Shown here: piece after piece, positions 8,116 to 61,064 of the stretch
Numbering within the stretch: position 1 is the stretch's first letter
Layout: every line of letters starts with the position of its first letter
Virus record (IMG/VR): IMGVR_UViG_3300037297_000216
Source of the DNA: an uncultured virus (IMG/VR IMGVR_UViG_3300037297_000216)
Lineage: Duplodnaviria > Heunggongvirae > Uroviricota > Caudoviricetes > Crassvirales
Length of the DNA: 64,000 nt
Strand: one strand, 5' to 3'
Notes under the pieces: generated by a model
Seen by the model: only the letters and a program-made list of their open reading frames with translations
Database searches by the model: none
Told to the model about the DNA's origin: nothing
Made by a program: the position numbers and the translations under genes

Positions 8116-8670
8116 TTAAACTTTTTTACCTATTTCCTCATCTATTTCTAAAATACCTACTCCTTGTTCTGTCATCATTTCAACCTTATCTAACAAATTC
8201 TTAAACAAAGCTTCTTCTTCTACTTGTTCCTTTAAATACCACTGAATAAACTGGTAAGTTGTATGACAAGGTTCTTTTAAAGCCATAGTAGCAAATTCTT
8301 CATATATAGAAGTTACATACATTTCATGCTCATAACTTTTCTTTAATACATCTACTAAATCTTTAAAATCAGATAATTGTTGTTTAACCGCAGGAGTATC
8401 AGGTAAACAATTTCTATCTAACGCATACTGCCTAAGTTTCTTCATGTGAGCTAACTCTTCTTCAACATGTCTATTCATAAATTTAGCAGTACCAAATAAA
8501 CCTTTATATTCGCACCACGAAGCCATTGCTCTATAAATCTGAGAAGCTTCAAACTCCGCAGCAATATGAAAGTTAATACGATTCATAAGAATGTCAGACA
8601 ATCTTTTCTCTCCTTTTTTAGAAGTAGTAGAACTAGCATTAACTTCCCCTGGTTTTTTTATAGTTGCCAT
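8116..8670 (-). CDS. ftn: Ferritin (non-heme)
   Basis: EFEASQIY, EELAH, EHE, WYLKEQVEEE ferroxidase-centre motifs. Confidence 0.9.
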   Translation of the reverse strand: MATIKKPGEVNASSTTSKKGEKRLSDILMNRINFHIAAEFEASQIYRAMASWCEYKGLFGTAKFMNRHVEEELAHMKKLRQYALDRNCLPDTPAVKQQLSDFKDLVDVLKKSYEHEMYVTSIYEEFATMALKEPCHTTYQFIQWYLKEQVEEEALFKNLLDKVEMMTEQGVGILEIDEEIGKKV

Positions 8671-16646: not shown

Positions 16647-17184
16647 AATAATTCTTTTAATTTTTCAATCATTTCTTCTATATCTTCTTTTTCATATACA
16701 AGAAACTGTCTTTCATAGTCAAACATTCCATCTCTCTCTAAAATATGAAAATCAGCCTTTATAGACTCTCCCTTTTCCATTTTCTCCATCACCTCAGCAT
16801 ACTGTAAAAACTCTCCTTCATATTCTTGTTTTGGATTATCCAGCATATCAGAGTAAAACCAATCTTTACCTTTATTTGTAGTTTCTCCTTTTACCTTCAA
16901 TCCATCCGTATAACAAGGAGCATAAAATGAATATAAAGTCTTTTCTGGTAAAGACACAAATGTATCATAATCTACAATCTTCATATCGAAAATTTTAATT
17001 CTAATTCTTTCCTAATTGCTTTATTCAATAGTTCTAATAAATTTAATAAAGATGTAGCCTTTAAAACAGGAAATTCAATCAAAGTTTCCTCATTTTCTAC
17101 TTTAGAAACTGAAGGTTCTAACGATTCAAACTCTGCTAAAGCCGCTACATACTCTTTACCATTATTTATCACTTCTATTATCAC
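16643..17184 (-). CDS. Two hypothetical proteins (16643..16984; 16981..17184)
   Basis: ATGA-coupled ORFs in operon. Confidence 0.55.
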
Positions 17185-17533
17185 AACCGTTATTACAAAT
17201 CGTTTCCGTATTTCTTTTATCTTTTATATAACCAGCCATAAGTATAGCATAATTAGCAAGATCTAATAGAGTATCTTCTATTGATTCATCTTTGACACTA
17301 AGTATACCTCGTTTAACAAATGTATTAATACGACTTATCTTATCCATCATACGAGTAAGAAACCCTTGTTCTATAGATGCTATACCACACTCTTCAACTA
17401 CTTTAAAATTACCAAAAGCATTTCTAGTATCATCAAATCCAGCATAATCTTTATTTTTAGCTGTAGTTATAGTTGTCATTTTATCACAACAATACTTATG
17501 AAACTTTAAATACTCTTCCCTATTCATTTCCAA
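17162..17533 (-). CDS. DUF1599 / nucleotide-modification-associated domain 1 protein
   Basis: KNKDYAG, AFGNF, RMMDKISR, DESIEDTLLDLANYAIL. Confidence 0.8.
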   Translation of the reverse strand: MEMNREEYLKFHKYCCDKMTTITTAKNKDYAGFDDTRNAFGNFKVVEECGIASIEQGFLTRMMDKISRINTFVKRGILSVKDESIEDTLLDLANYAILMAGYIKDKRNTETICNNGCDNRSDK

Positions 17534-24786: not shown

Positions 24787-25182
24787 ATGGCAGAAATAAG
24801 TATACAAGAATTAGCTGAAACTTTAATGAACCTTACCACAAAACAACATATTCAGTTAAAGAAAGAACTTGAAGAAGTTCATGGTTTAGAGATGAATTTA
24901 CCTCAAACAACATCAATGCCAATCAAAGAAGAAGTAGTCAAAGAAGAACCAAAAAAAACTACTTTTAATGTAACATTGAAAAGTTCTGGTGAAAAACATT
25001 TAAGTGTAGTAAAAACCTGGAAACAATACAATGAGAATCAAAACATGAATTTAAAAGAAGCAAAAGAAATAATTGACAGTGCTCCAGTGATATTAAAAGA
25101 AGGTGTTTCTCAAATAGAAGCTGAAGAAATTAAAAAGCTACTTGAAGAGGTAAGTAATGGAGTTGAAATAATTATTGAATAA
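24787..25182 (+). CDS. rplL: Ribosomal protein bL12 (L7/L12), full length
   Basis: N-terminal dimerisation helices (LMNLT..LKKELEE.HG), hinge, CTD KTTFNVTL, LKEAKEIIDSAPVILKEGVS..EAEEIKKLLEE. Confidence 0.88.
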   Translation: MAEISIQELAETLMNLTTKQHIQLKKELEEVHGLEMNLPQTTSMPIKEEVVKEEPKKTTFNVTLKSSGEKHLSVVKTWKQYNENQNMNLKEAKEIIDSAPVILKEGVSQIEAEEIKKLLEEVSNGVEIIIE

Positions 25183-37629: not shown

Positions 37630-38079
37630 ATGTTACTTTTAAATAAAATTTTTAAAAAGAAAAATAAAATTTTGCTTAAAGAAGCTTTGAAAATAAAAGA
37701 AGATCTTTTTCATCAAATAGGAAAACTTGAAAAAAGTTTAGCTTATTATAATAAAACACAAAAAGAAAAAGAAAGAGAAGAAGCCTTTTCTCAATTAGAA
37801 CAAATAGCAAAAAAATATTCAAAAATATGTAAAATAATATTAAAAGCTAACTTAAAAAGTGGGCAAAATGAATATATAAAACTTCGTGAACTGTTAAATA
37901 GGAGAAAATATATATTATTAGAAATGCCAAGTGGATGTTGGATTCCTAATCCATATTATTCTCCTTTATCAAAAAAACTAATACCTGTACAAAATGTTAT
38001 ACTTAAAACAAAAGAACAGTTAAAAGAAGTTTCAAAGAAACAAGAGGAAATTAACAATAAATATTATGTAAAAATATGA
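37630..38079 (+). CDS. Hypothetical coiled-coil protein
   Basis: 149 aa ORF, ATGA overlap with RNR. Confidence 0.55.
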   Translation: MLLLNKIFKKKNKILLKEALKIKEDLFHQIGKLEKSLAYYNKTQKEKEREEAFSQLEQIAKKYSKICKIILKANLKSGQNEYIKLRELLNRRKYILLEMPSGCWIPNPYYSPLSKKLIPVQNVILKTKEQLKEVSKKQEEINNKYYVKI

Positions 38080-39030
38080 TAGAAAATAAGTTAGGTGAAG
38101 GGGTAGAAAAAACTACCCCTACTTTCTTCACAAGGGAAGAAGTTTATGAACAAACTTTAAAATATTTTGATGATGATAAACTGTTAACTGATATTTGGGG
38201 GGATAAGTATTGTCTTAAAGACTTACAAGGTAATTATTTAGAATTAACTCCAGATGATATGCATAGAAGACTAACCAAAGAATTTGTTAGAATTGAACAG
38301 AAATATAAAAACTCATTAAATGAACAAGAAATTTATGATTTGTTGGTCAATTTCGGTTATATTATTCCTGGAGGTAGTATTTTATATGGAGCGGGAAATA
38401 ACTACTCCTTTAGTTCGCTTGGCAACTGCTTTGTCATCGGGAACAATAGTGACTCTTATGGCGGAATATGTCAAACTGACCAAGAACAAACCCAACTAAT
38501 GAAGCGTCGGGCAGGTGTGGGTCACGATATATCCCATTTAAGGCCATTTTTAGCCCCTGTAACAAACGCAGCAGGCACTTCTAGTGGTATAGTACCATTT
38601 ATGGAAAGATACTCTAATACGACACGTGAAGTAGCTCAGGATAACCGTAGGGGAGCACTAATGTTAACACTTGATATTAATCATCCACAAATATATGATT
38701 TCATAGAAGCAAAAACTGATTTAACAAAGATAACAGGTGCTAATATATCAGTTAAGATTACTGATGAATTTATGAAAGCTGTTGAAAATGATGAAGATTA
38801 TATTTTATATTTTGACAGAAATGGAAATTTTAAAGAAAGAGATATAAATCATAAACTTGAACTATATAAAGATACTTACTTTAAAATTAAAGCTAAACCT
38901 TTATGGAATAAATTAATTCATCAAGCTTGGAAAACAGCGGAACCAGGTGTATTATTTCGGGATAAAATTAAATCTGAATCCATACCTAGTTGTTATGGAG
39001 AAGAATGGGAAGAAACGAGTACTAATCCGT
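38076..39030 (+). CDS. nrdJ: Class II (AdoCbl-dependent) ribonucleotide reductase, exon 1
   Basis: PGGS, SLGNCFV, RRAGVG, RRGALM, ITGANISV, AEPG, ends STNP+T. Confidence 0.9.
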
Positions 39031-39042
39031 AAACTAAACATT

Positions 39043-39832: not shown

Positions 39833-41526
39833 GTGGTGAAATTCCACTCTGTCCTTACGATAGTTGTAGGTTAATGAGTGTGAATTTGTACTCGTTTGTA
39901 GAAAACCCATTTACAGACAAAGCTTTTTTTAACTATGATAAATTTAAAGACGTAGTGTATAAAGCACAACGTTTAATGGATGATGTTGTAGATTTAGAAG
40001 AAGAGAAAATTAATAAAATACTTAATAAAATTGAAAACGATCCAGAACCTGAAGAAATTAAGAAGATTGAGAAAGACTTATGGACTAAAATCAAAGGAAA
40101 ATTACTCTCCGGTAGACGTACTGGTCTTTCTGCTATTGGTCTTGCTGATTGTTTGGCTGCTCTCAATGTTACCTATGGATCTGAAGATTCTATAAAATTA
40201 GTAGAAAAAATATACAAACAATTTGCTATATCTGCTTATAAAAGTAGTATAGATATGGCTAAAGAAAGAGGAGCTTTTCCTATTCATAATATTGAACTAG
40301 AAAAAGAAAATCCTTTTTTGAAAAGATTTTGGAAAGAAGTAGGACAAAATGAAATATCAAATGCCAAAACAGATATAAAAATTGGATTTGGATTTTCTAA
40401 AGAAGATAAAGAACAAACTTATCTTTGGAAATATAAAGAATATGGACGTAGAAATATTGCTTTATTAACTATACCGCCATCAGGCACAATAAGTCAAATG
40501 GCAAGTATATCTTCAGGTATAGAGCCTGTTTATCAATTATTACACAAAAGACGATATAAAATATTAGGAGATCAAGAATATGACTATGTTGATAAAACTG
40601 GTGATAAATGGCGTGAATATACTGTATTACATCCTAAATTTAAAGAATGGTTTGATATATGGGGAAAACCAAAAGATGTGGTCAATCCTACTATTGAAGA
40701 ACTTAATAAACTAAATCTATGGAATACTTTTAGACAATATGGTAATATTACAAATCTTGAAACTTTCATAAAAATATCTCCTTATTATAATTCTACAGCA
40801 TATGAAATAGATCCTATACAAAGAGTTAAATTACAAGCTACTATTCAGAAATGGATTGATCACAGCATAAGCTCAACAATTAACTTACCTAAATCAGCTA
40901 CAGAAGAAGAAGTGTCTAATCTTTATATAGAAGCATGGAAACAAGGTTGTAAAGGTATAACCATCTATCGTGATGGTTGTAGAGAAGGAATATTAACATC
41001 AATTAATCAAAAAGATACAGAATTCAAACAACATGATGCTCCTAAAAGACCTAAATCTTTGCCTTGTAATATTCATTCTACTACAATTAAAGGAGAAGGT
41101 TTTTACGTACTAATAGGCTTATATGAAAATAAACCTTATGAAGTGTTTGTTATTAGAAAAGATATTCATTATTTTACTGAAAAAGAAGGTATTATTTCAA
41201 AATTAAATAAAAAACAGTATGATATTCAACAAAAAGATTCTGAAGTAGGCTGGATAATGACAGAAGCTTTATCAGATAATGAAGCTACTATAACTAGATT
41301 AGTATCAACTGCTTTAAGACATGGTACTGATATAAAATTTATAACGGAACAGCTTAATAAAACTCAAGGAGATCTTACTAATTTTGGTAAAGCAATAGCA
41401 AGAGTATTATCAAAATATATTAAAAAAGAAACAGGATTAGAATGTCCAGAATGTAAACAAAATACATTAATAAGAGAATCAGGTTGTATAAAATGTACGA
41501 ATTGTGGTTATTCTAAATGCAATTAA
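39833..41526 (+). CDS. nrdJ: Class II RNR, exon 2 (spliced product 882 aa) with C-terminal TSCPD-like domain and Zn ribbon
   Basis: GEIPLCPYDSCRL, RRTGL, TIPPSGT, SSGIEP, QKWIDHSISSTINL, GCKGITIYRDG, APKRP, CPEC..C..CGYSKC. Confidence 0.92.
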
Positions 41527-43655: not shown

Positions 43656-44846
43656 ATGTGGGAAAGAATAGTATATAAATTAGATGATTGGGCCATTAAA
43701 AAATATAAAGGTTCTTCACCAGTAGGTGTAGAACAATATATATATTTAGCATTACCTACTTTTATTGATGATACCTGGCAACAAAAAAAAGAAATTATAA
43801 ATAAATGCCGGATAATGGAAATCGAAAGTGATCCTATTTCAAAAACTCATGAAATTTATACAATAAATGGTCATTATGGTTATAAATTAGATAGTATGAT
43901 GACTATTGATTTTCCAGACAAAAATATAACAAATTATATAATACCAAGACCTATGACAGATCAAAAAGAAATACATATACTTGATGTTGTACGAAAAGTA
44001 AGAAATCATACTAAAGCTGGATACCAAGCTTGTAAAGAAGCAATAGAACAAGCTATTAACGAAGGAATAAAATTAGAAAAAGAAATAATAGAAAGAGCTT
44101 TTTCTATATTAGCTTCTAAAAAACAAATAACAAGTAGTACCACTATATCAGATTTCAAAGAAGGAAGAATAGCAGTGGATACTAATTTTGATAAAACAGC
44201 AGGTGTTATCATAGCCTTAGGTTGTAAATCTGAAGCTGCTACTAACACAGAAATATTTATAAAATTATTAGATAATATAATAATAAAAGCTGTAAATAAT
44301 CTTCCAGAAACTACTATTGATTTATTATCTTCAAATTATTGCAATGAAGATCATACGATTGCTGAAGAAATATCTAATGTATCAGAGATATTAAAAGAAG
44401 AGTTAAAATTACTGTATTACAGTATGATGAAAGTACCAACTGATACACAAGTTATTAGCTGTTATGAGCACTATGTATCTAATGGATGTAAGTTAGGAAC
44501 TTTAGGTATGTTTGAAAAATCAAAAGAATCCGAAGATCTATTTATAAACATTTTAATGCAAATTGCAGCTTATAATCCTTTATGTAAGTCAGAAGATGAG
44601 TTGTTACCAGAGATTATTTTAAATGAAAAGAATATAATTTTTGAAGAATTAACAGAGGATCCAAAACTTAAAAATAAACCAATAGAAGTAAAAGAAAAGA
44701 TAACTGAAAACAAATTAAAAGCATTTTTTGAAGAAGCTTTATTATATAATCAAAAATTAAGTACACAACCTAACTTTACTGTAAAAGAATATATGGATAA
44801 ATATAAAATTATCTTATTCGATTTTGAAAGATATAAAATAGGTTAA
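43656..44846 (+). CDS. tsf: Elongation factor Ts-like protein with about 100 aa N-terminal extension
   Basis: VRKVRNHTKAGYQACKEA (UBA-like N-domain), EGRIAV, MQIAAYNP, KPIEVKEKITENKL..FFEE..L..Q, TVKEY, FERYKIG. Confidence 0.85.
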   Translation: MWERIVYKLDDWAIKKYKGSSPVGVEQYIYLALPTFIDDTWQQKKEIINKCRIMEIESDPISKTHEIYTINGHYGYKLDSMMTIDFPDKNITNYIIPRPMTDQKEIHILDVVRKVRNHTKAGYQACKEAIEQAINEGIKLEKEIIERAFSILASKKQITSSTTISDFKEGRIAVDTNFDKTAGVIIALGCKSEAATNTEIFIKLLDNIIIKAVNNLPETTIDLLSSNYCNEDHTIAEEISNVSEILKEELKLLYYSMMKVPTDTQVISCYEHYVSNGCKLGTLGMFEKSKESEDLFINILMQIAAYNPLCKSEDELLPEIILNEKNIIFEELTEDPKLKNKPIEVKEKITENKLKAFFEEALLYNQKLSTQPNFTVKEYMDKYKIILFDFERYKIG

Positions 44847-46881: not shown

Positions 46882-48867
46882 ATGATTTACTTCGTTAGTA
46901 GAAATATAAATAGTAATGTATTAAAAAATAATAACATTACGTTAACAGGTGTCGAAAAAGTTATAGAGGATTTACAAAATGAAACTGAAATTTGTCTAGA
47001 TACTGAAACAACCGGTTACAGTCCTATCTATAACGATATAATTTTATTACAGTTTGGAACTTTAAAAGGTAATCAGTACGTAATAGATACTAGAGATTTT
47101 GAAGTAAATCATTTTAAACGTTTACTTGAAAGTGAAACTAAAACTTTCATAGGTCATAATATAAAGTTCGATTATAATATGTTAAAAAAACATGGTATAG
47201 TCCTAAGAAATGTATATGATACTATGATTGTTGATAAGGTGATATTTAATGGAGCTTATGGACAAGACTTTATTCGTAAAAATAAAAGATTTTCATTAGC
47301 TGGTGTGTACAAACATTATTTCAACAAATATATAGAAAAAAAAATAAGAGAAGATTTTGTCAGATGGAGAAATAAACCATTTACATACGATCAAATAACA
47401 TATGCTGCTTTAGATGCTTTATATCCTTTTCATATAAAAGAAAAACAACTAGAATTAGTAAAAAAGTATTTGTTAGAAGAGACTGTAAAGCTTGAAAATA
47501 AAGTAGTTTTAGCAATAGGAGATATTGAATATAATGGAATGAGACTTGATCCTGTCAAATGGAGAAATGTTGTAAATAAGTATAAAATCAGGGCAGAACA
47601 AAGTGAAACAAAATTAGACGAAATGCTTTTATTGCAGCCAGGAACTCAAAAGTATAAAAAAATAGCAACCCAATTGACATTATTTGATGAACCAGAAGAT
47701 AAAAGAAAATCAATAATAAACTGGAATAGTGATCAACAAGTATATGAAGTATTATCAAATATATTCAAAATATATCCTAAAGATAAACATGGTAAACCTT
47801 CTTCTGGTGCTGATGCTATTGAAATGTTATCCACATCCCACCCATTTACAAACTTATTATTAAAATATCGAGAGGAAACAAAAGTTATAACTTCGTTTGG
47901 TGAAAAATTTTTAGGAAAATTAAACCCAGATAGCAGAATTAGAACGTCTTTTAATCAAATAATGAACACAGGTAGAGTAAGTAGTAGCAATCCTAATATG
48001 CAACAAATCAAAAGATACAATAAAGAAGACCCTGATTCCAAATACTTTAGAGAAGCTTTTTGTGTAAAAGAAGATAAATGTTTATCTACTGCTGACTATT
48101 CTCAACAAGAAGCTCGTATAATGGCTGATATGGCTGATGACAAAGATTATATAAAATTTTTCAATGAAGATGGAGGAGACAGTCATAGTTTTGTAGCTAC
48201 TAAGTTATTTTCTGCAAAGTTTAAAAAAGAATTTAAAGTATCTAAAACAGAAAATGAAGAATATAGATATAAAGGAAAAATACTTAATTTTAGTATTTCT
48301 TTTGGTATACAAGCAAATACATTATCTAAATGCCTTAAAGTATCTATAGAGGAAGCTCAGGAGCTCATAGATGCGTTTTATGAAGGTTTTCCTACTCTAA
48401 AGATATTTTTTGAAAAGTCTCATGAGGAAGCTCTTTTTAAGGGTTATATAAGGACTAATAATATAACAAATAGAATCAGGTGGTTTCCCGAATGGCGCAA
48501 ATATTTAGAATTAAAAGATAATCGAAGCAGAGATTGGTCTGGTAACAAAGAACTTTCTATTATTGAAGGAATAATAAAACGAAGAGCTCAAAATACTAAA
48601 ATTCAAGGTACAGCTGGAGATATGACAAAATTAGCTTTAGTATATATAAGAACAAAATTGATAGAAAATAATATATTACCTTTATATGAAGCTTCAGTAA
48701 AATTGGTTAATGTCATACATGATGAAACAGTATTAGAAAGTATCCCAGAATTAGTTAATAAATGGTCTACAATTCAAAGAGAATGTATGGAAAAAGCGGG
48801 AGAAGCTTTCTGTAAAAAAGTAAAAGTAACAGCAGATTTTAGTATAGGTCAACATTGGGAACATTAA
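46882..48867 (+). CDS. polA: Family A DNA polymerase with 3'-5' exonuclease
   Basis: DTETTG, GHNIKFD, YAALD, TGRVSSSNPNMQQI, ADYSQQEAR, RYKGKILNF, IQGTAGD, IHDE. Confidence 0.95.
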   Translation: MIYFVSRNINSNVLKNNNITLTGVEKVIEDLQNETEICLDTETTGYSPIYNDIILLQFGTLKGNQYVIDTRDFEVNHFKRLLESETKTFIGHNIKFDYNMLKKHGIVLRNVYDTMIVDKVIFNGAYGQDFIRKNKRFSLAGVYKHYFNKYIEKKIREDFVRWRNKPFTYDQITYAALDALYPFHIKEKQLELVKKYLLEETVKLENKVVLAIGDIEYNGMRLDPVKWRNVVNKYKIRAEQSETKLDEMLLLQPGTQKYKKIATQLTLFDEPEDKRKSIINWNSDQQVYEVLSNIFKIYPKDKHGKPSSGADAIEMLSTSHPFTNLLLKYREETKVITSFGEKFLGKLNPDSRIRTSFNQIMNTGRVSSSNPNMQQIKRYNKEDPDSKYFREAFCVKEDKCLSTADYSQQEARIMADMADDKDYIKFFNEDGGDSHSFVATKLFSAKFKKEFKVSKTENEEYRYKGKILNFSISFGIQANTLSKCLKVSIEEAQELIDAFYEGFPTLKIFFEKSHEEALFKGYIRTNNITNRIRWFPEWRKYLELKDNRSRDWSGNKELSIIEGIIKRRAQNTKIQGTAGDMTKLALVYIRTKLIENNILPLYEASVKLVNVIHDETVLESIPELVNKWSTIQRECMEKAGEAFCKKVKVTADFSIGQHWEH

Positions 48868-48878
48868 AATATACAAAC

Positions 48879-49637
48879 ATGAAAACAAGAATAGCACCTA
48901 GTCCTACTGGATATTTTCATTTAGGAACATTAAGAACAGCTCTATTAAATTATTTGTTAGCAAAAAGTAATAATGGAACTTTTTTATTACGAATAGACGA
49001 CACTGATCAACAAAGAAGTAAAAAAGAATATATTGATTTTATTTACCAGGAAATGTCAAAATTTGGTTTATCTTATGATGAAACATTCAAACAATCAGAT
49101 AGAATAGATCGATATAAAGAAGTAGCAGAAAAAATTGGTTATAAAGATAAAGAAAATGATTGGATATGTTTTGACATGGGATTTAAAATGATACTAATTA
49201 GAGAAAACGGATATCCTACTTATAATTTTGCTACTGTTGTTGATGATTATGATTATAATGTAACTCATATTATACGAGGAGTTGATCATATTCAAAATAT
49301 TGATCGTCAAAAAATATTGTGGGATGAAATAGTTTCTGTATATGGAAATAAAAACTTTCCAGAAATAAAACATGTAGGCTTACTATTCGAAGGAAATAAA
49401 AAATTATCAAAAAGAGATAATAATGGAACTACTTCAAACTATAATAATTATAAAAAATCAGCTTTATTAAATTGGTTATTTAAATTTGGTTGGTCACATC
49501 CTGATCCAAATTTTGATAGTAAATATAAAATATTATATTTAAAAGACATGATTAACTTATTTAATGAAGGAAATCTTTCTACTTCTAATTGTAAGATAGA
49601 CAAGAATAAATTAGAGTGGTTAAATAAAAGACATTAA
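48879..49637 (+). CDS. Minimal glutamyl-tRNA synthetase-like protein (catalytic domain only)
   Basis: RIAPSPTG.FHLG, LRIDDTD, QSDR, YNFATVVDD, THIIRGVDH, KLSKR; no anticodon-binding domain. Confidence 0.85.
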   Translation: MKTRIAPSPTGYFHLGTLRTALLNYLLAKSNNGTFLLRIDDTDQQRSKKEYIDFIYQEMSKFGLSYDETFKQSDRIDRYKEVAEKIGYKDKENDWICFDMGFKMILIRENGYPTYNFATVVDDYDYNVTHIIRGVDHIQNIDRQKILWDEIVSVYGNKNFPEIKHVGLLFEGNKKLSKRDNNGTTSNYNNYKKSALLNWLFKFGWSHPDPNFDSKYKILYLKDMINLFNEGNLSTSNCKIDKNKLEWLNKRH

Positions 49638-49644
49638 GAGAACA

Positions 49645-50814
49645 ATGATGAAAACAAAATTTAAAGAAATTCCAAAACATATAGATAAAAAAGAAGGGTT
49701 ATGTTGTTTCAATAAAAATTTAGATAAATTGGACAAAGTATCTCTATTAAAAAATAATTTTGTGTTAGAAGAAAAGGATGATTATATAAATATATACTTT
49801 ACTAAAAAAAGTAATTTTAATATATTTAAAGATTATAAGAACTTTTACTATATGGATGGATTTAGCCCAAATTTGAACAAAGAACTCCATATAGGACATT
49901 TTTCTAATTTAATAATTGCAAAAGCTCTACAAAAATTAGGCATCGTAAAAAAGACTATTTCAATGCTTGGGGATACTTTAGAAGGAAATATCTCAAATAA
50001 AGAAGGTTTTAGATTATTCAAAAATATAATAAAAACTTTTAACTATAAAGTAAGCAGAATATTTTTTGCATCAAAACTGAAATATCAAGGAAAACTTGAA
50101 GAAGGTAAAGGTAAATATGAAGGTACTAAAATATTTGATACTAATGAAGAATTAATTGTCGCAATAAAAAAAGACGGTACAACTTCATATACTTATCATG
50201 ATATTGCTTTGGCAAAAAAACTAGTTAAGGACACATTGTATTTGACTGGATATGAACAAAAAGAACACTTTAATAAAATAAAAAAAGTATTTAAAAATGT
50301 ACATCATTTTCCTTTAGGGTTGGTAAAAATATCTAATTCAAAAATGTCAACGAGAGAAGGAAATATAATATTAATAAAAGATATTCTAGATGAACTTAAT
50401 AAAACTTTTAAAAATAATAAGTTAAGTTACAATGTTTTTGCAGGATATATTTTAAAGTCTTCTCCAAATACAGATAAAAACATAAATATAAAAAATATTT
50501 ATAATTATAAAAATTCCCCTGGTTTGTACTTAAGTTATACAACAGCAAGGTTATTAAGTGCGGGATGTAAAATACTTCCATTTAAGATAACAAATAATAA
50601 ATTATTAGAATATTATTTTATACTATCTAAAAATGAACTTAATCCTTCATTATTATTCAATAAATTAATAGACTGTTGTAAAACTTTAAATACATTATAT
50701 GAAACAATAAAAATAAAAGGTAATTTAAAAAATAAAATAAATATGTCCATCAAGCTAACAGAATTAAATTATTATATGAAAAAAATAGGTTTATACTTAA
50801 TTAAAAAGGTATAA
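49645..50814 (+). CDS. Shortened arginyl-tRNA synthetase-like protein
   Basis: FSPNLNKELHIGH, KDGTTSYTYHDIA, YLTGYEQKEHF, KMSTREGN, PGLYLSYTTAR. Confidence 0.8.
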   Translation: MMKTKFKEIPKHIDKKEGLCCFNKNLDKLDKVSLLKNNFVLEEKDDYINIYFTKKSNFNIFKDYKNFYYMDGFSPNLNKELHIGHFSNLIIAKALQKLGIVKKTISMLGDTLEGNISNKEGFRLFKNIIKTFNYKVSRIFFASKLKYQGKLEEGKGKYEGTKIFDTNEELIVAIKKDGTTSYTYHDIALAKKLVKDTLYLTGYEQKEHFNKIKKVFKNVHHFPLGLVKISNSKMSTREGNIILIKDILDELNKTFKNNKLSYNVFAGYILKSSPNTDKNINIKNIYNYKNSPGLYLSYTTARLLSAGCKILPFKITNNKLLEYYFILSKNELNPSLLFNKLIDCCKTLNTLYETIKIKGNLKNKINMSIKLTELNYYMKKIGLYLIKKV

Positions 50815-50836: not shown

Positions 50837-51430
50837 ATGATATTAGAATTAGATTTACATTTACTTTATAAATCTGGTCTTAGTCCTAACCAATTCATAT
50901 TTTGTGACTTATTAAGAGAAGGTCACTATCTAATACTTCAAAAATTAATAAAAACGACAGGTTTTGTAAATAAAGAAAGTATAACAGATTTATTAAGTAA
51001 AAAATATGTAATTTCTAATGAATATTTTAATTTAAATGATTTTAATTCTACAATAAGATTTTTAAGCATAACAGATAAATTCAAAAGTATATTACCAGTA
51101 AAGAATAATGACCCGTTTCAAGATATATTAAACCTATACCCAACAAAAACATTAAGACCAGACGGTAATACTGATTATTTAAAAACAGGTATAAAAAAAT
51201 GTAATACAAAATATAACAACATAATAAAAAGAAATCCATCAAAGCATGAGTTAATTGTAGAAGCTTTAAAATATGAGTTAAATATTCGTAAGAAAGAAAA
51301 CACGTTAAAATTTATGAAACGTCTTCCTAAATGGATTAGTGATGAAGAATGGGAAGTATTCATCCAAAGAATGGAAGATGATAATGGTAATAATAAAGTA
51401 AATAATAATTATGGAGGAAACCTCTTATAA
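50837..51430 (+). CDS. Replication protein upstream of helicase (initiator/loader-like)
   Basis: N-terminal wHTH-like part, F..ILNLYP, C-terminal KFMKRLPKWI..EEW; overlaps dnaB. Confidence 0.5.
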   Translation: MILELDLHLLYKSGLSPNQFIFCDLLREGHYLILQKLIKTTGFVNKESITDLLSKKYVISNEYFNLNDFNSTIRFLSITDKFKSILPVKNNDPFQDILNLYPTKTLRPDGNTDYLKTGIKKCNTKYNNIIKRNPSKHELIVEALKYELNIRKKENTLKFMKRLPKWISDEEWEVFIQRMEDDNGNNKVNNNYGGNLL

Positions 51431-52406
51431 CAATATTTTACATTATAAACATATAGAACATTCAACTAACGAAATACTTAGTTATATCAAAAATAGAAAA
51501 GAAAAAACAATCAAATCACTAAAAACTCGTTGGGAAAAATTTAATAACCAGTGTATGGGGGGAGTAGAACCCAATACTATTTACACTATAGCCGGTATAA
51601 GCGGTAGTGGAAAAAGTTCATTTGTAAATTCCCTCGAAACAGATTTATTTGATTTAAATCCTGATGTTGATTTTGTAGTTTTATCATTTAACTGGGAAAT
51701 GTTATCATCACGTCAAATAGGTAGAAAATTATCATATAGAATGAACAGGACTACTAGTGATTTATATAGTAGTAAGAATTCATTAAATGATGAAGAATAT
51801 AGAAAAGCACAAACTATAGCAGAAGAAATAAAACAAATACCTATTTATTACGTAGATACACCAGGTAGTGTTGAAAATGTAAGAAATACTATAATTCATT
51901 TTTCTAATAACGAAGGTAAAGGAAAGTGGATAGTAATAATATTAGACCATACCTTATTAACACGTGGAAGACTAGGTGAGTCAGAAAGAGAAACATTATC
52001 AAGACTTCAATATATGTTCATGGAAATGAAAAAATATAATCAAAACACTATAATTCAATTAAGTCAAATGAACAGAGATATTGAATCTACAGAAAGAATT
52101 GCAAACAGTTATATGCATTTTCCTATGCGGAAAGACCTGTTTGGGGGCGACTCAGTCATGCAAGCAAGTGATTATGTAGTAGTAATGCACAGGCCAGAGA
52201 TGTTAAATATACAAGATAATGAATATGGTCCTAAAAATTGGCCTGTTAAAAACTTAATATACCTACATTTTTTAAAAAACCGAGAAGGAGAATTAGGTAT
52301 AATAGTATTTGAAAACAATCTCAAATACAATAGAATTGATGAAACTTCTTTAGACAATAGGAAAACTTATGAAGAAGATTTTAGTCCAATTAATTACAAT
52401 TATTAA
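51411..52406 (+). CDS. dnaB: DnaB-like (SF4) replicative helicase
   Basis: AGISGSGKS, FNWEM, IILDH, LSQMNR, DLFGGDSVMQASD, KNREG. Confidence 0.9.
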   Translation: MEETSYNNILHYKHIEHSTNEILSYIKNRKEKTIKSLKTRWEKFNNQCMGGVEPNTIYTIAGISGSGKSSFVNSLETDLFDLNPDVDFVVLSFNWEMLSSRQIGRKLSYRMNRTTSDLYSSKNSLNDEEYRKAQTIAEEIKQIPIYYVDTPGSVENVRNTIIHFSNNEGKGKWIVIILDHTLLTRGRLGESERETLSRLQYMFMEMKKYNQNTIIQLSQMNRDIESTERIANSYMHFPMRKDLFGGDSVMQASDYVVVMHRPEMLNIQDNEYGPKNWPVKNLIYLHFLKNREGELGIIVFENNLKYNRIDETSLDNRKTYEEDFSPINYNY

Positions 52407-60344: not shown

Positions 60345-60449
60345 GTTATATAAATAATTACCTATTTGTAGTAAACCATGAAATTTGATTAATATATAAC
60401 TTTTTTGATCTTTTTACGTATATACATTTATAATTCAAATTTAAATATT

Positions 60450-61064
60450 ATGTGTATATATTTAATAATAAATTTACAAAATAATAAAATATATATTGGT
60501 TCAGCTGTCAATTTTAATAAACGAAAAAATTATCATTTAAGTTATTTAAGACGAAATAAACACATTAATTATAAGTTACAAAATGATTTTAATATATATG
60601 GGGAAGAATGGTTTGTGTTTAAAATATTTAAGAAAGCAAATAACGATTACAAAAAATTATTAAAATTAGAACAATCTTTTTTAGATTCACTAAAACCAGA
60701 TTATAATATAGCAAAATATGTAGAACAGCCTTATTACGGAAGAAAACATTCTAAAGAAACAATTGAAAAAATCAGAAAAGCAAATACAGGAATAAAATTT
60801 TCAAAAGAACGATGTGAACGAATATCAAAAGCTAACAAAAATAAAAAAAGAAAACCTTTATCTGAAAAAACAAAAAACAAGTTAAAAGAACTAAGAGTTT
60901 CAAAACCTGTCAACCAATATGATTTGAATAATATTTTTATAAAATCTTACCCAAGTATAAAAGAAGCTGAAAGACAAACAAAAATAAATAGAGGAAATAT
61001 TAGTGACTGTTGTAATAACAATATAACAAAAACTGGAGGATTTATTTGGAAGTTTAAATCTTAA
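60450..61064 (+). CDS. Free-standing GIY-YIG homing endonuclease with NUMOD3 and NUMOD1/IENR1 repeats
   Basis: CIY..YIGSA..R..H, HSKETIEKIR, KPVNQYDL..YPSIKEAER...TGGFIWKF. Confidence 0.88.
   Translation: MCIYLIINLQNNKIYIGSAVNFNKRKNYHLSYLRRNKHINYKLQNDFNIYGEEWFVFKIFKKANNDYKKLLKLEQSFLDSLKPDYNIAKYVEQPYYGRKHSKETIEKIRKANTGIKFSKERCERISKANKNKKRKPLSEKTKNKLKELRVSKPVNQYDLNNIFIKSYPSIKEAERQTKINRGNISDCCNNNITKTGGFIWKFKS

Follow-up and report, generated by a model that had tools for sequence, protein, structure and literature searches.

We analysed a 64,000-nucleotide (nt) stretch, hereafter the window, of the genome of an uncultured crAss-like phage (IMG/VR record IMGVR_UViG_3300037297_000216). Between its polA gene and a gene for a DnaB-like replicative helicase lie two plus-strand genes whose products resemble class I aminoacyl-tRNA synthetases (aaRSs), a tandem arrangement that a sequence-only reading of the window had described. 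The first gene (48879..49637) encodes a protein of 252 amino acids (aa) that corresponds to the catalytic core of the glutamyl-tRNA synthetase (GluRS) GltX and that we call mini-GluRS (Pfam tRNA-synt_1c, PF00749; E 1.3e-52). Its open reading frame (ORF) opens at a TTG codon (48855-49637), and the family alignment begins at the ATG at 48879, which gives the 252-aa product. The second gene (49645..50814) encodes a 389-aa protein related to arginyl-tRNA synthetase (ArgRS; Pfam tRNA-synt_1d, PF00750; E 2.2e-10). Both genes are intact, and their products keep the class I signature motifs that the sequence-only reading had pointed out. In mini-GluRS, the HIGH-type signature is HLGT (48918..48929) and the KMSKS-type signature is KLSKR (49401..49415); the ArgRS-like protein contains HIGH (49888..49899) and, at the KMSKS position, KMSTR (50341..50355). 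The same reading was right that the ArgRS-like protein is much shorter than cellular enzymes, as it falls ~190 residues below E. coli or yeast ArgRS.

To place the ArgRS-like protein, a family profile was required, since a phmmer search of the Protein Data Bank with the single sequence gave no match. The profile matches yeast ArgRS (E 6.8e-8) and aligns the segments SPN...HIGH, KSDG.TSY.YxD, EQ..H, and KMS(S/T)R with the matching yeast segments, with KMSTR of the phage protein on MSTR of the yeast enzyme. The AlphaFold model (pLDDT 92.9) aligned over residues 1-389 with chain residues 53-607 of yeast ArgRS (Z 29.2, 359 residues aligned) and 23-577 of E. coli ArgRS (373 residues aligned). Z scores against 13 ArgRS entries were 24-29. 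CysRS and MetRS came next (Z 21-24), and their alignments covered only residues ~60-389. As the ArgRS structures align along the whole length, the ArgRS-like protein is not a bare core. It begins with a small N-terminal domain, continues with a Rossmann catalytic domain whose insertions are shortened, and ends in a short helical C-terminal domain. Thus, it corresponds to ArgS from end to end, and differs in a reduced N-terminal domain of ~65 residues and in shorter insertions and a shorter C-terminal bundle. Residues 1-65 of the model lie inside alignments that start at chain residues 23-53, with the N-terminal (Add1) region much reduced. At the other end, the structure alignment of the helical, anticodon-binding-type domain reaches the ends of the ArgRS chains (model residue 389 pairs with chain residue 607). 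By sequence, the profile aligned this domain weakly with the yeast enzyme (334-392 with 543-606), and there was no Pfam DALR match.

We checked residue conservation in alignments of 121 sequences, one alignment for each family. In the ArgRS-like family, SPN (N76), Y182, D186, and Q205 align with S151-N153, Y347, D351, and Q375 of yeast ArgRS, of which N153, Y347, D351, and Q375 are, we assume, the residues that bind arginine. N76, Y182, D186, and Q205 are invariant (121/121), as are H82, G84, and H85 of the HIGH motif and K233 of KMSTR, while M234 is present in 118/121. The protein is strongly basic, with 69 lysines and arginines, 36 aspartates and glutamates, and a net charge of +33.

The ArgRS-like family comprised 307 proteins among the 8000 candidates scored, and the best 120 were 41-100% identical and mostly about 390-415 aa long. 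In representative cellular genomes, the best 80 loci included one true mini-ArgRS, on a 5-kb contig of a metagenome-assembled genome (MAG); the remaining loci were partial matches with 21-38% identity. We then asked which tRNA genes lie near the family in viruses. Among 40 viral loci, 18 had a tRNA gene within 6 kb, and the nearest one was a tRNA-Arg in 10 of these 18, compared to 3.6 expected if the nearest tRNA were a random pick from the tRNAs of the locus itself (P ~2e-5). The anticodons of these tRNAs were CCU, UCU, UCG, and ACG, and the tRNA genes were upstream in some loci and downstream in others. In five of five huge phage genomes that were 97-100% complete, the mini-ArgRS gene was the sole argS-type gene; the same search recovered canonical ArgRS in 14/14 control genomes. 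In the huge phage LR745206, the ArgRS-like gene follows an array of 19 tRNA genes, three of them for tRNA-Arg, and a 392-aa ORF resembling class II synthetases of the Asn/Asp type. This ORF (locus L002, LR745206.1, 4785-5963) has a homologue with 65% identity in locus L048. Class II enzymes of this type are usually longer, and the ORF may encode a further trimmed phage synthetase.

We consider it likely, judging from sequence, modelled structure, and genomic context, that the 389-aa protein is a working compact ArgRS. It would bind tRNA-Arg through its reduced N- and C-terminal domains and charge it with arginine. In the window, AGA makes up 59% and AGG 18% of arginine codons, and charging of tRNA-Arg would aid translation of an AT-rich genome whose arginine codons are AGA or AGG in 77% of cases.

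Mini-GluRS has been reduced further. Compared with a 475-aa GluRS, it aligns in two blocks, with residues 2-87 matching 12-98 and residues 103-250 matching 177-316. About 78 residues of the acceptor-binding insertion are absent, a loss that the sequence-only reading overlooked. Likewise, positions ~88-173 of the gltX profile are unmatched, with ~15 residues in their place, and all five phage records show the same gap. The match ends at position 315 of the 470-position gltX model, so that the C-terminal anticodon-binding domain (Anticodon_2) is absent, as had been proposed. The two-block alignment and the end at position 315 indicate that the insertion (with the pZBD) and the anticodon-binding domain are both missing, leaving the Rossmann fold and the stem-contact fold. 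We detected no Anticodon_2 domain among the scanned window ORFs of at least 100 aa. Across the phage records, none occurred outside full-length GluRS genes, and none was found in G014 or G010, which are complete phages carrying the mini form only. As these records encode no stand-alone Anticodon_2 protein, we rejected a split gene or an anticodon-binding domain acting in trans.

The AlphaFold model of mini-GluRS (pLDDT 94.3) superimposed on residues 2-317 of Thermus thermophilus GluRS (1j09) with Z 28.2 and a root-mean-square deviation of 1.8 over 242 residues. Identity to bacterial GluRS structures was 31-42% over 237-246 aligned residues. The sequence-only reading had likened mini-GluRS to GluQ-RS/YadB. 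This likeness holds insofar as both are stand-alone GluRS-type catalytic domains without an anticodon-binding domain, and fails in other respects, since profile, structure, and tree all favor GltX and the insertion is gone in mini-GluRS. Mini-GluRS scored 226.9 bits with gltX_bact (TIGR00464; curated cut-off 289.95) and 130.5 bits with the GluQRS model (TIGR03838; cut-off 276.7), below both cut-offs and lower with GluQRS than with gltX_bact. Z scores against GluQRS structures were 23.1 and 21.3.

A phylogeny against GltX and GluQRS placed mini-GluRS on the GltX side. This was a quick, midpoint-rooted tree of 30 rows, from which a fragment and two duplicate rows had been excluded. It separated the pair of GluQRS sequences from every GltX and mini sequence (SH-aLRT 99). 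The mini proteins grouped as a single clade (support 100), whose stem was long (2.94 changes per column). Full-length GluRS proteins of LR745206 and of locus L067 joined a Flavobacteriales GltX (98), and mini-GluRS did not. A second short lineage, loci L089 and L091 (282-291 aa), arose separately from the mini family; these proteins, from viral contigs, are GltX-like and ~35% identical to the mini-GluRS of the window.

An exhaustive search of cluster representatives revealed many GltX-like proteins of 250-330 aa. All 16 short forms that we sampled scored higher with gltX than with GluQRS, and the sample included forms whose alignment to the gltX model picked up again at position 141-155 or 168-172. 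One 403-aa protein in the sample lacks the insertion but not the anticodon-binding domain, and its 415.8 bits exceed the gltX cut-off. Loss of the pZBD also has a natural precedent in working enzymes: 7 of 212 bacterial GluRSs, from Methylacidiphilum, Akkermansia, Phytoplasma, and others, naturally lack it and are taken as functional in the survey data of PMC4381286. The Methylacidiphilum GluRS was among the best structural matches of mini-GluRS, which nevertheless leaves ~42 residues of the catalytic half of that enzyme (7-288) unmatched. The mini-GluRS family of the window is therefore the extreme end of a series of reductions in which each single loss has precedent; full-text literature searches gave no account of the two losses combined. 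Compared with GltX itself, mini-GluRS shares the Rossmann and stem-contact folds and the PSPTG...H.G, PTYNF, RG.DH, and KLSKR motifs, and differs in the loss of the whole C-terminal anticodon-binding domain, in D40 and V135, which stand at positions of acidic residues, and in its score below the cut-off.

The mini-GluRS family comprised 3131 proteins at E <= 0.001 among 3293 candidates, and the best 120 clusters were 58-96% identical and 243-284 aa long. In the ESM Atlas, the cluster nearest to mini-GluRS has 382 members, 71% of them viral. Representative bacterial and archaeal genomes contained no close mini-GluRS, and the four matches were all full-length GltX. Across the family alignment, R4, S8, Y115, N116, R133, D136, and H137 are invariant, as are K175, S177, and K178 of the KMSKS-type signature (121/121). 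The first position of the HIGH-type signature is H in 108/121 and Q in 13/121, and its G is invariant. Members of the Q type, such as those at loci L004 and L081, have MQIGN where others have FHLGT, and their other pocket residues are invariant. The stem-contact region (N198, W199, G204, W205) is as conserved as the pocket.

Many members of both families come from viral contigs of great length, up to 656-676 kb, one of which its source labels “uncultured marine phage”, and the best matches of both proteins in the phage collection were two huge phages, LR745206 (634 kb) and LR756504 (636 kb). Because the members of both families reside on viral contigs and on a few contigs binned into MAGs, they are not recent host copies. 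Nor did we find the pseudogenised recent host captures that the sequence-only reading had considered; both are conserved phage families with invariant catalytic residues.

We also examined the surroundings of mini-GluRS. Across 16 loci, no neighboring gene was conserved, and only mini-GluRS itself was common to them. The complete 368.5-kb phage G014 has three tRNA-Glu genes, all of them 1.2-3.3 kb upstream of mini-GluRS. This arrangement is shared with locus L009, and the two probably represent one event. The 62 tRNA genes of G014 (loci L101-L119) cover all 20 amino acids; several have odd anticodon loops, and one tRNA with a CUA anticodon was called tRNA-Pyl by ARAGORN. At L009, a tRNA with a UCA anticodon, called tRNA-SeC, lies 1.6 kb upstream of mini-GluRS.

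Overall, we favor the reading, with somewhat better than even confidence, that the window encodes two separately acquired derivatives of class I aaRSs from phage lineages, a compact ArgRS and a mini-GluRS core, with the activities predicted here. With its intact pocket for glutamate and ATP, mini-GluRS would still form glutamyl-adenylate. The glutamyl group would then go to an acceptor, in all likelihood a tRNA that the enzyme holds by its retained stem-contact fold, without reading the anticodon and without the usual clamp on the acceptor arm. Mini-GluRS is probably a glutamyl-adenylate-forming transferase with a tRNA as its acceptor. That it charges the tRNA 3′ end is quite possible, if a little short of an even chance. 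A broader proposal, which we put forward tentatively and consider rather doubtful, is that the family is a natural urzyme-like glutamyl transferase, a core of 250-285 aa that stays active during phage infection and either charges tRNA in an anticodon-blind manner or uses an acceptor other than the tRNA 3′ end. If true, anticodon-blind charging could take tRNA-Glu, tRNA-Gln, tRNA-Asp, or suppressor tRNAs alike. Stop-codon recoding found no support in the window as a reason for an anticodon-blind GluRS, as the window ORFs read through in translation table 11 and no suppressor tRNA was found there.

Several observations weigh against two working synthetase derivatives. The ArgRS-like protein scores 63 bits with argS (TIGR00456), far below the cut-off of 261.65, and the 40 loci behind its association with tRNA-Arg were dereplicated at 90% identity with no further correction for shared ancestry. 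In mini-GluRS, both tRNA-positioning domains of GluRS are gone, and known GluRSs activate glutamate only with tRNA bound, as described in PMC4393105 and PMC2034488. The first His of the HIGH motif is replaced by Q in 13 of 121 members, and the lineage-specific D40 and V135 stand where three aligned GluRSs have acidic residues (E and D/E). The 64-kb window, from a phage genome of ~98 kb, contains no tRNA gene, and the two complete phages with only the mini form encode no separate Anticodon_2 protein. Of 40 mini-GluRS loci, which were not dereplicated, eight had tRNA genes, and the nearest was never a tRNA-Glu (Ala in three, Gln in two, Met in two, and Trp in one). Finally, two of the five records searched, LR745206 and G009, contain a full-length GluRS as well as mini-GluRS, and this coexistence in two huge phages argues against a simple redundant GluRS.

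Some of these observations would also fit mini-GluRS if it transferred activated glutamate to something other than a tRNA 3′ end, such as a small molecule, a protein, or a modified nucleotide. MshC, a relative of CysRS that ligates cysteine to a sugar, is a parallel for such an acceptor. The loss of both tRNA-positioning domains, the lack of a stand-alone anticodon-binding domain in the two complete phages with only the mini form, the full-length GluRS in two of five records, and the lack of a specific tRNA-Glu neighborhood all point this way, and aaRS paralogues with such acceptors have been catalogued (PMC9437257). We nevertheless consider this alternative unlikely: none of the 16 loci revealed a conserved neighboring gene that could supply or use the acceptor, the stem-contact fold, which contacts tRNA in GluRS, is conserved like the pocket, and GluRS-type enzymes described in PMC4393105 need the tRNA 3′ end to activate glutamate. 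The sequence-only reading had raised a non-canonical acceptor for both proteins. For the ArgRS-like protein, the evidence points to ordinary charging of tRNA-Arg, an outcome that this reading had itself named as a refutation, and the idea survives for the GluRS-like protein only. A related alternative is that mini-GluRS works as GluQRS does and glutamylates a modified base of the anticodon loop, for example queuosine of tRNA-Asp. Both proteins lack the anticodon-binding domain, and tRNA-Asp genes occur within ~0.7-3.5 kb at loci L009, L082/L083, and L020. Yet mini-GluRS scores less than half of the GluQRS cut-off (130.5 versus 276.7 bits) and higher with gltX (226.9), its structure matches GluQRS less well than GluRS (Z 23.1 versus 28.2), and the tree separates GluQRS from the clade of GltX and mini sequences (SH-aLRT 99). 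Moreover, GluQRS retains the insertion, or pZBD, with a zinc motif in 46 of 61 proteins (Table 2 of PMC4381286), and mini-GluRS lacks it; all 16 sampled short forms also favored gltX. Mini-GluRS is thus a separate lineage, and a GluQRS-like role is very improbable.

Alternatively, mini-GluRS could have no catalytic role and serve as a binder or decoy, for instance of a host factor or toxin directed at GluRS or tRNA-Glu, or decay after capture could be under way in one gene or in both. That the first His of HIGH is lost in 13 of 121 members and that all profile scores fall under the curated cut-offs would be expected on this account. It is more improbable still than a GluQRS-like role, as all other checked pocket and signature residues are invariant (121/121), the families are long, intact, and phage-wide without stops, and the stem of the mini clade is long (2.94 changes per column). 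Least probable of all, to our minds, is joint action of the two proteins, as a complex or in successive steps on one substrate. The sequence-only reading had suggested that they act together as amino-acid ligases, and the adjacency of the genes, 7 nt apart on the same strand, would fit, as would their presence together on several large phage contigs, including LR745206. Elsewhere, however, the genes lie far apart, by ~12 kb in G014 and ~368 kb in LR745206, and their tandem order was seen only in the lineage of the window. Reciprocal searches found mini-GluRS in none of five near-complete huge phages with the ArgRS-like gene and the ArgRS-like gene in none of five records with mini-GluRS. Among 46 ArgRS-like loci, only L042 contained an unclassified GluRS-like fragment, and the other two matches were full-length GluRS. 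As the families are distributed independently, a joint function is unlikely.

Urzymes are laboratory constructs of ~130 residues in which class I catalytic cores are stripped of the insertion and the anticodon-binding domain. Mini-GluRS has lost these two modules as well, but it is natural, has 252 aa, and keeps the stem-contact fold. Huge phages encode up to 15 tRNA synthetases each, and a GluRS subtree lies near Bacteroidetes hosts (Al-Shayeb et al., 2020; PMC7162821). Both of our proteins likewise have their closest relatives in huge phage genomes (364-676 kb). The passages of that study that we consulted describe host-related synthetases and do not mention shortened forms, and the carrier here is a crAss-like phage of ~98 kb. 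Full-text literature searches gave no description of such shortened phage forms; the supplementary tables of PMC7162821 may already list them.

Four class I synthetases, GluRS and ArgRS among them, require tRNA for amino-acid activation, and the reason is described as an open question in PMC4393105. A mini-GluRS core without the tRNA-positioning domains is a test case for the least protein that suffices for glutamate activation and transfer, and it can show how aaRS cores are re-used. The compact ArgRS family, at about two-thirds of the size of cellular enzymes, bears on how far a working synthetase may be trimmed, and could serve as a small orthogonal enzyme. In addition, this crAss-like phage of ordinary size has translation-related genes of a kind considered typical of huge phages, together with EF-Ts-like and L7/L12-like genes.

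We assigned the carrier to the crAss-like phages from its major capsid protein, which matches that of Crassvirus with 593.9 bits, and from a crAss tail-ring protein on the minus strand. The capsid protein is ~58-62% identical to those of crAss-like phages of the human gut, and G+C across the window is 24-34%. The size of the phage, ~98 kb, comes from a 97,831-bp contig that encodes the ArgRS-like protein, identical but for a missing first residue. The DNA record closest to the locus is a 16-kb fragment, identical over the locus; a search of the phage collection for near-identical DNA of the window gave no match. The 64-kb window contains no tRNA genes by ARAGORN, which agrees with the earlier remark that no cognate tRNAs are present, and no Rfam families. 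None of the phage-collection records matching either synthetase-like protein is named crAss-like, compared with 149 records matching the capsid protein, and the phage is therefore unusual in carrying both genes.

The synthetase-like genes belong to a run of five plus-strand genes that lie head to tail (46.9-52.4 kb), spaced by 7-22 nt or overlapping. The run begins with the family A DNA polymerase gene, polA (46882..48867; Pfam DNA_pol_A, E 6.6e-70), which includes a 3′-5′ exonuclease domain (DNA_pol_A_exo1, E 2.7e-28) and ends 11 nt before the start of mini-GluRS. Downstream of the compact ArgRS gene are a 197-aa ORF with no assigned function (50837..51430), which has no Pfam or PHROGs match and was restricted to the lineage of the window among the loci fetched, and the DnaB-like helicase gene (51411..52406; Pfam DnaB_C, E 4e-24). 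Because the genes are so tightly packed, cotranscription of both synthetase-like genes with the replication genes is probable. In PHROGs, both synthetase-like proteins match only function-unassigned families, and their neighbors match nothing. Insertion of the pair beside polA is plausible; in IAS virus, unrelated small genes occupy the region after polA. An empty site cannot be displayed, since the replication module is too diverged, with the window polA only ~29% identical to polA of known crAss-like phages.

Additional genes in the window caught our attention. A plus-strand gene (43656-44846) encodes a 396-aa EF-Ts-like protein, a translation factor in a crAss-like phage, whose C-terminal 214 residues match Pfam EF_TS (E 8.2e-26) and whose N-terminal extension of ~180 aa has no match. 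Another (24787-25182, plus strand) encodes a protein of 131 aa that contains the C-terminal domain of ribosomal L7/L12 (E 2.4e-15). Neither protein has a PHROGs match. The large subunit of ribonucleotide reductase is encoded by two plus-strand ORFs (38076-39032 and 39874-41526) that cover positions 3-196 and 231-523 of the barrel domain. The ~840 nt between them contain small ORFs only, with no group I or group II intron at the Rfam gathering score, and the split is possibly due to an unrecognised intron or a true split. On the minus strand, a gene for a small DUF1599 protein (“nucleotide modification associated domain 1”; 17162-17533) matched with E 3.6e-5, just under the Pfam cut-off, and a gene for a ferritin-like protein (8116-8670; E 5.5e-29) lies in the structural block, one ORF beyond the major capsid gene. 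A homing-endonuclease-like ORF with GIY-YIG and NUMOD1 domains (60405-61064, plus strand) lies where the coding strand and the GC skew switch.

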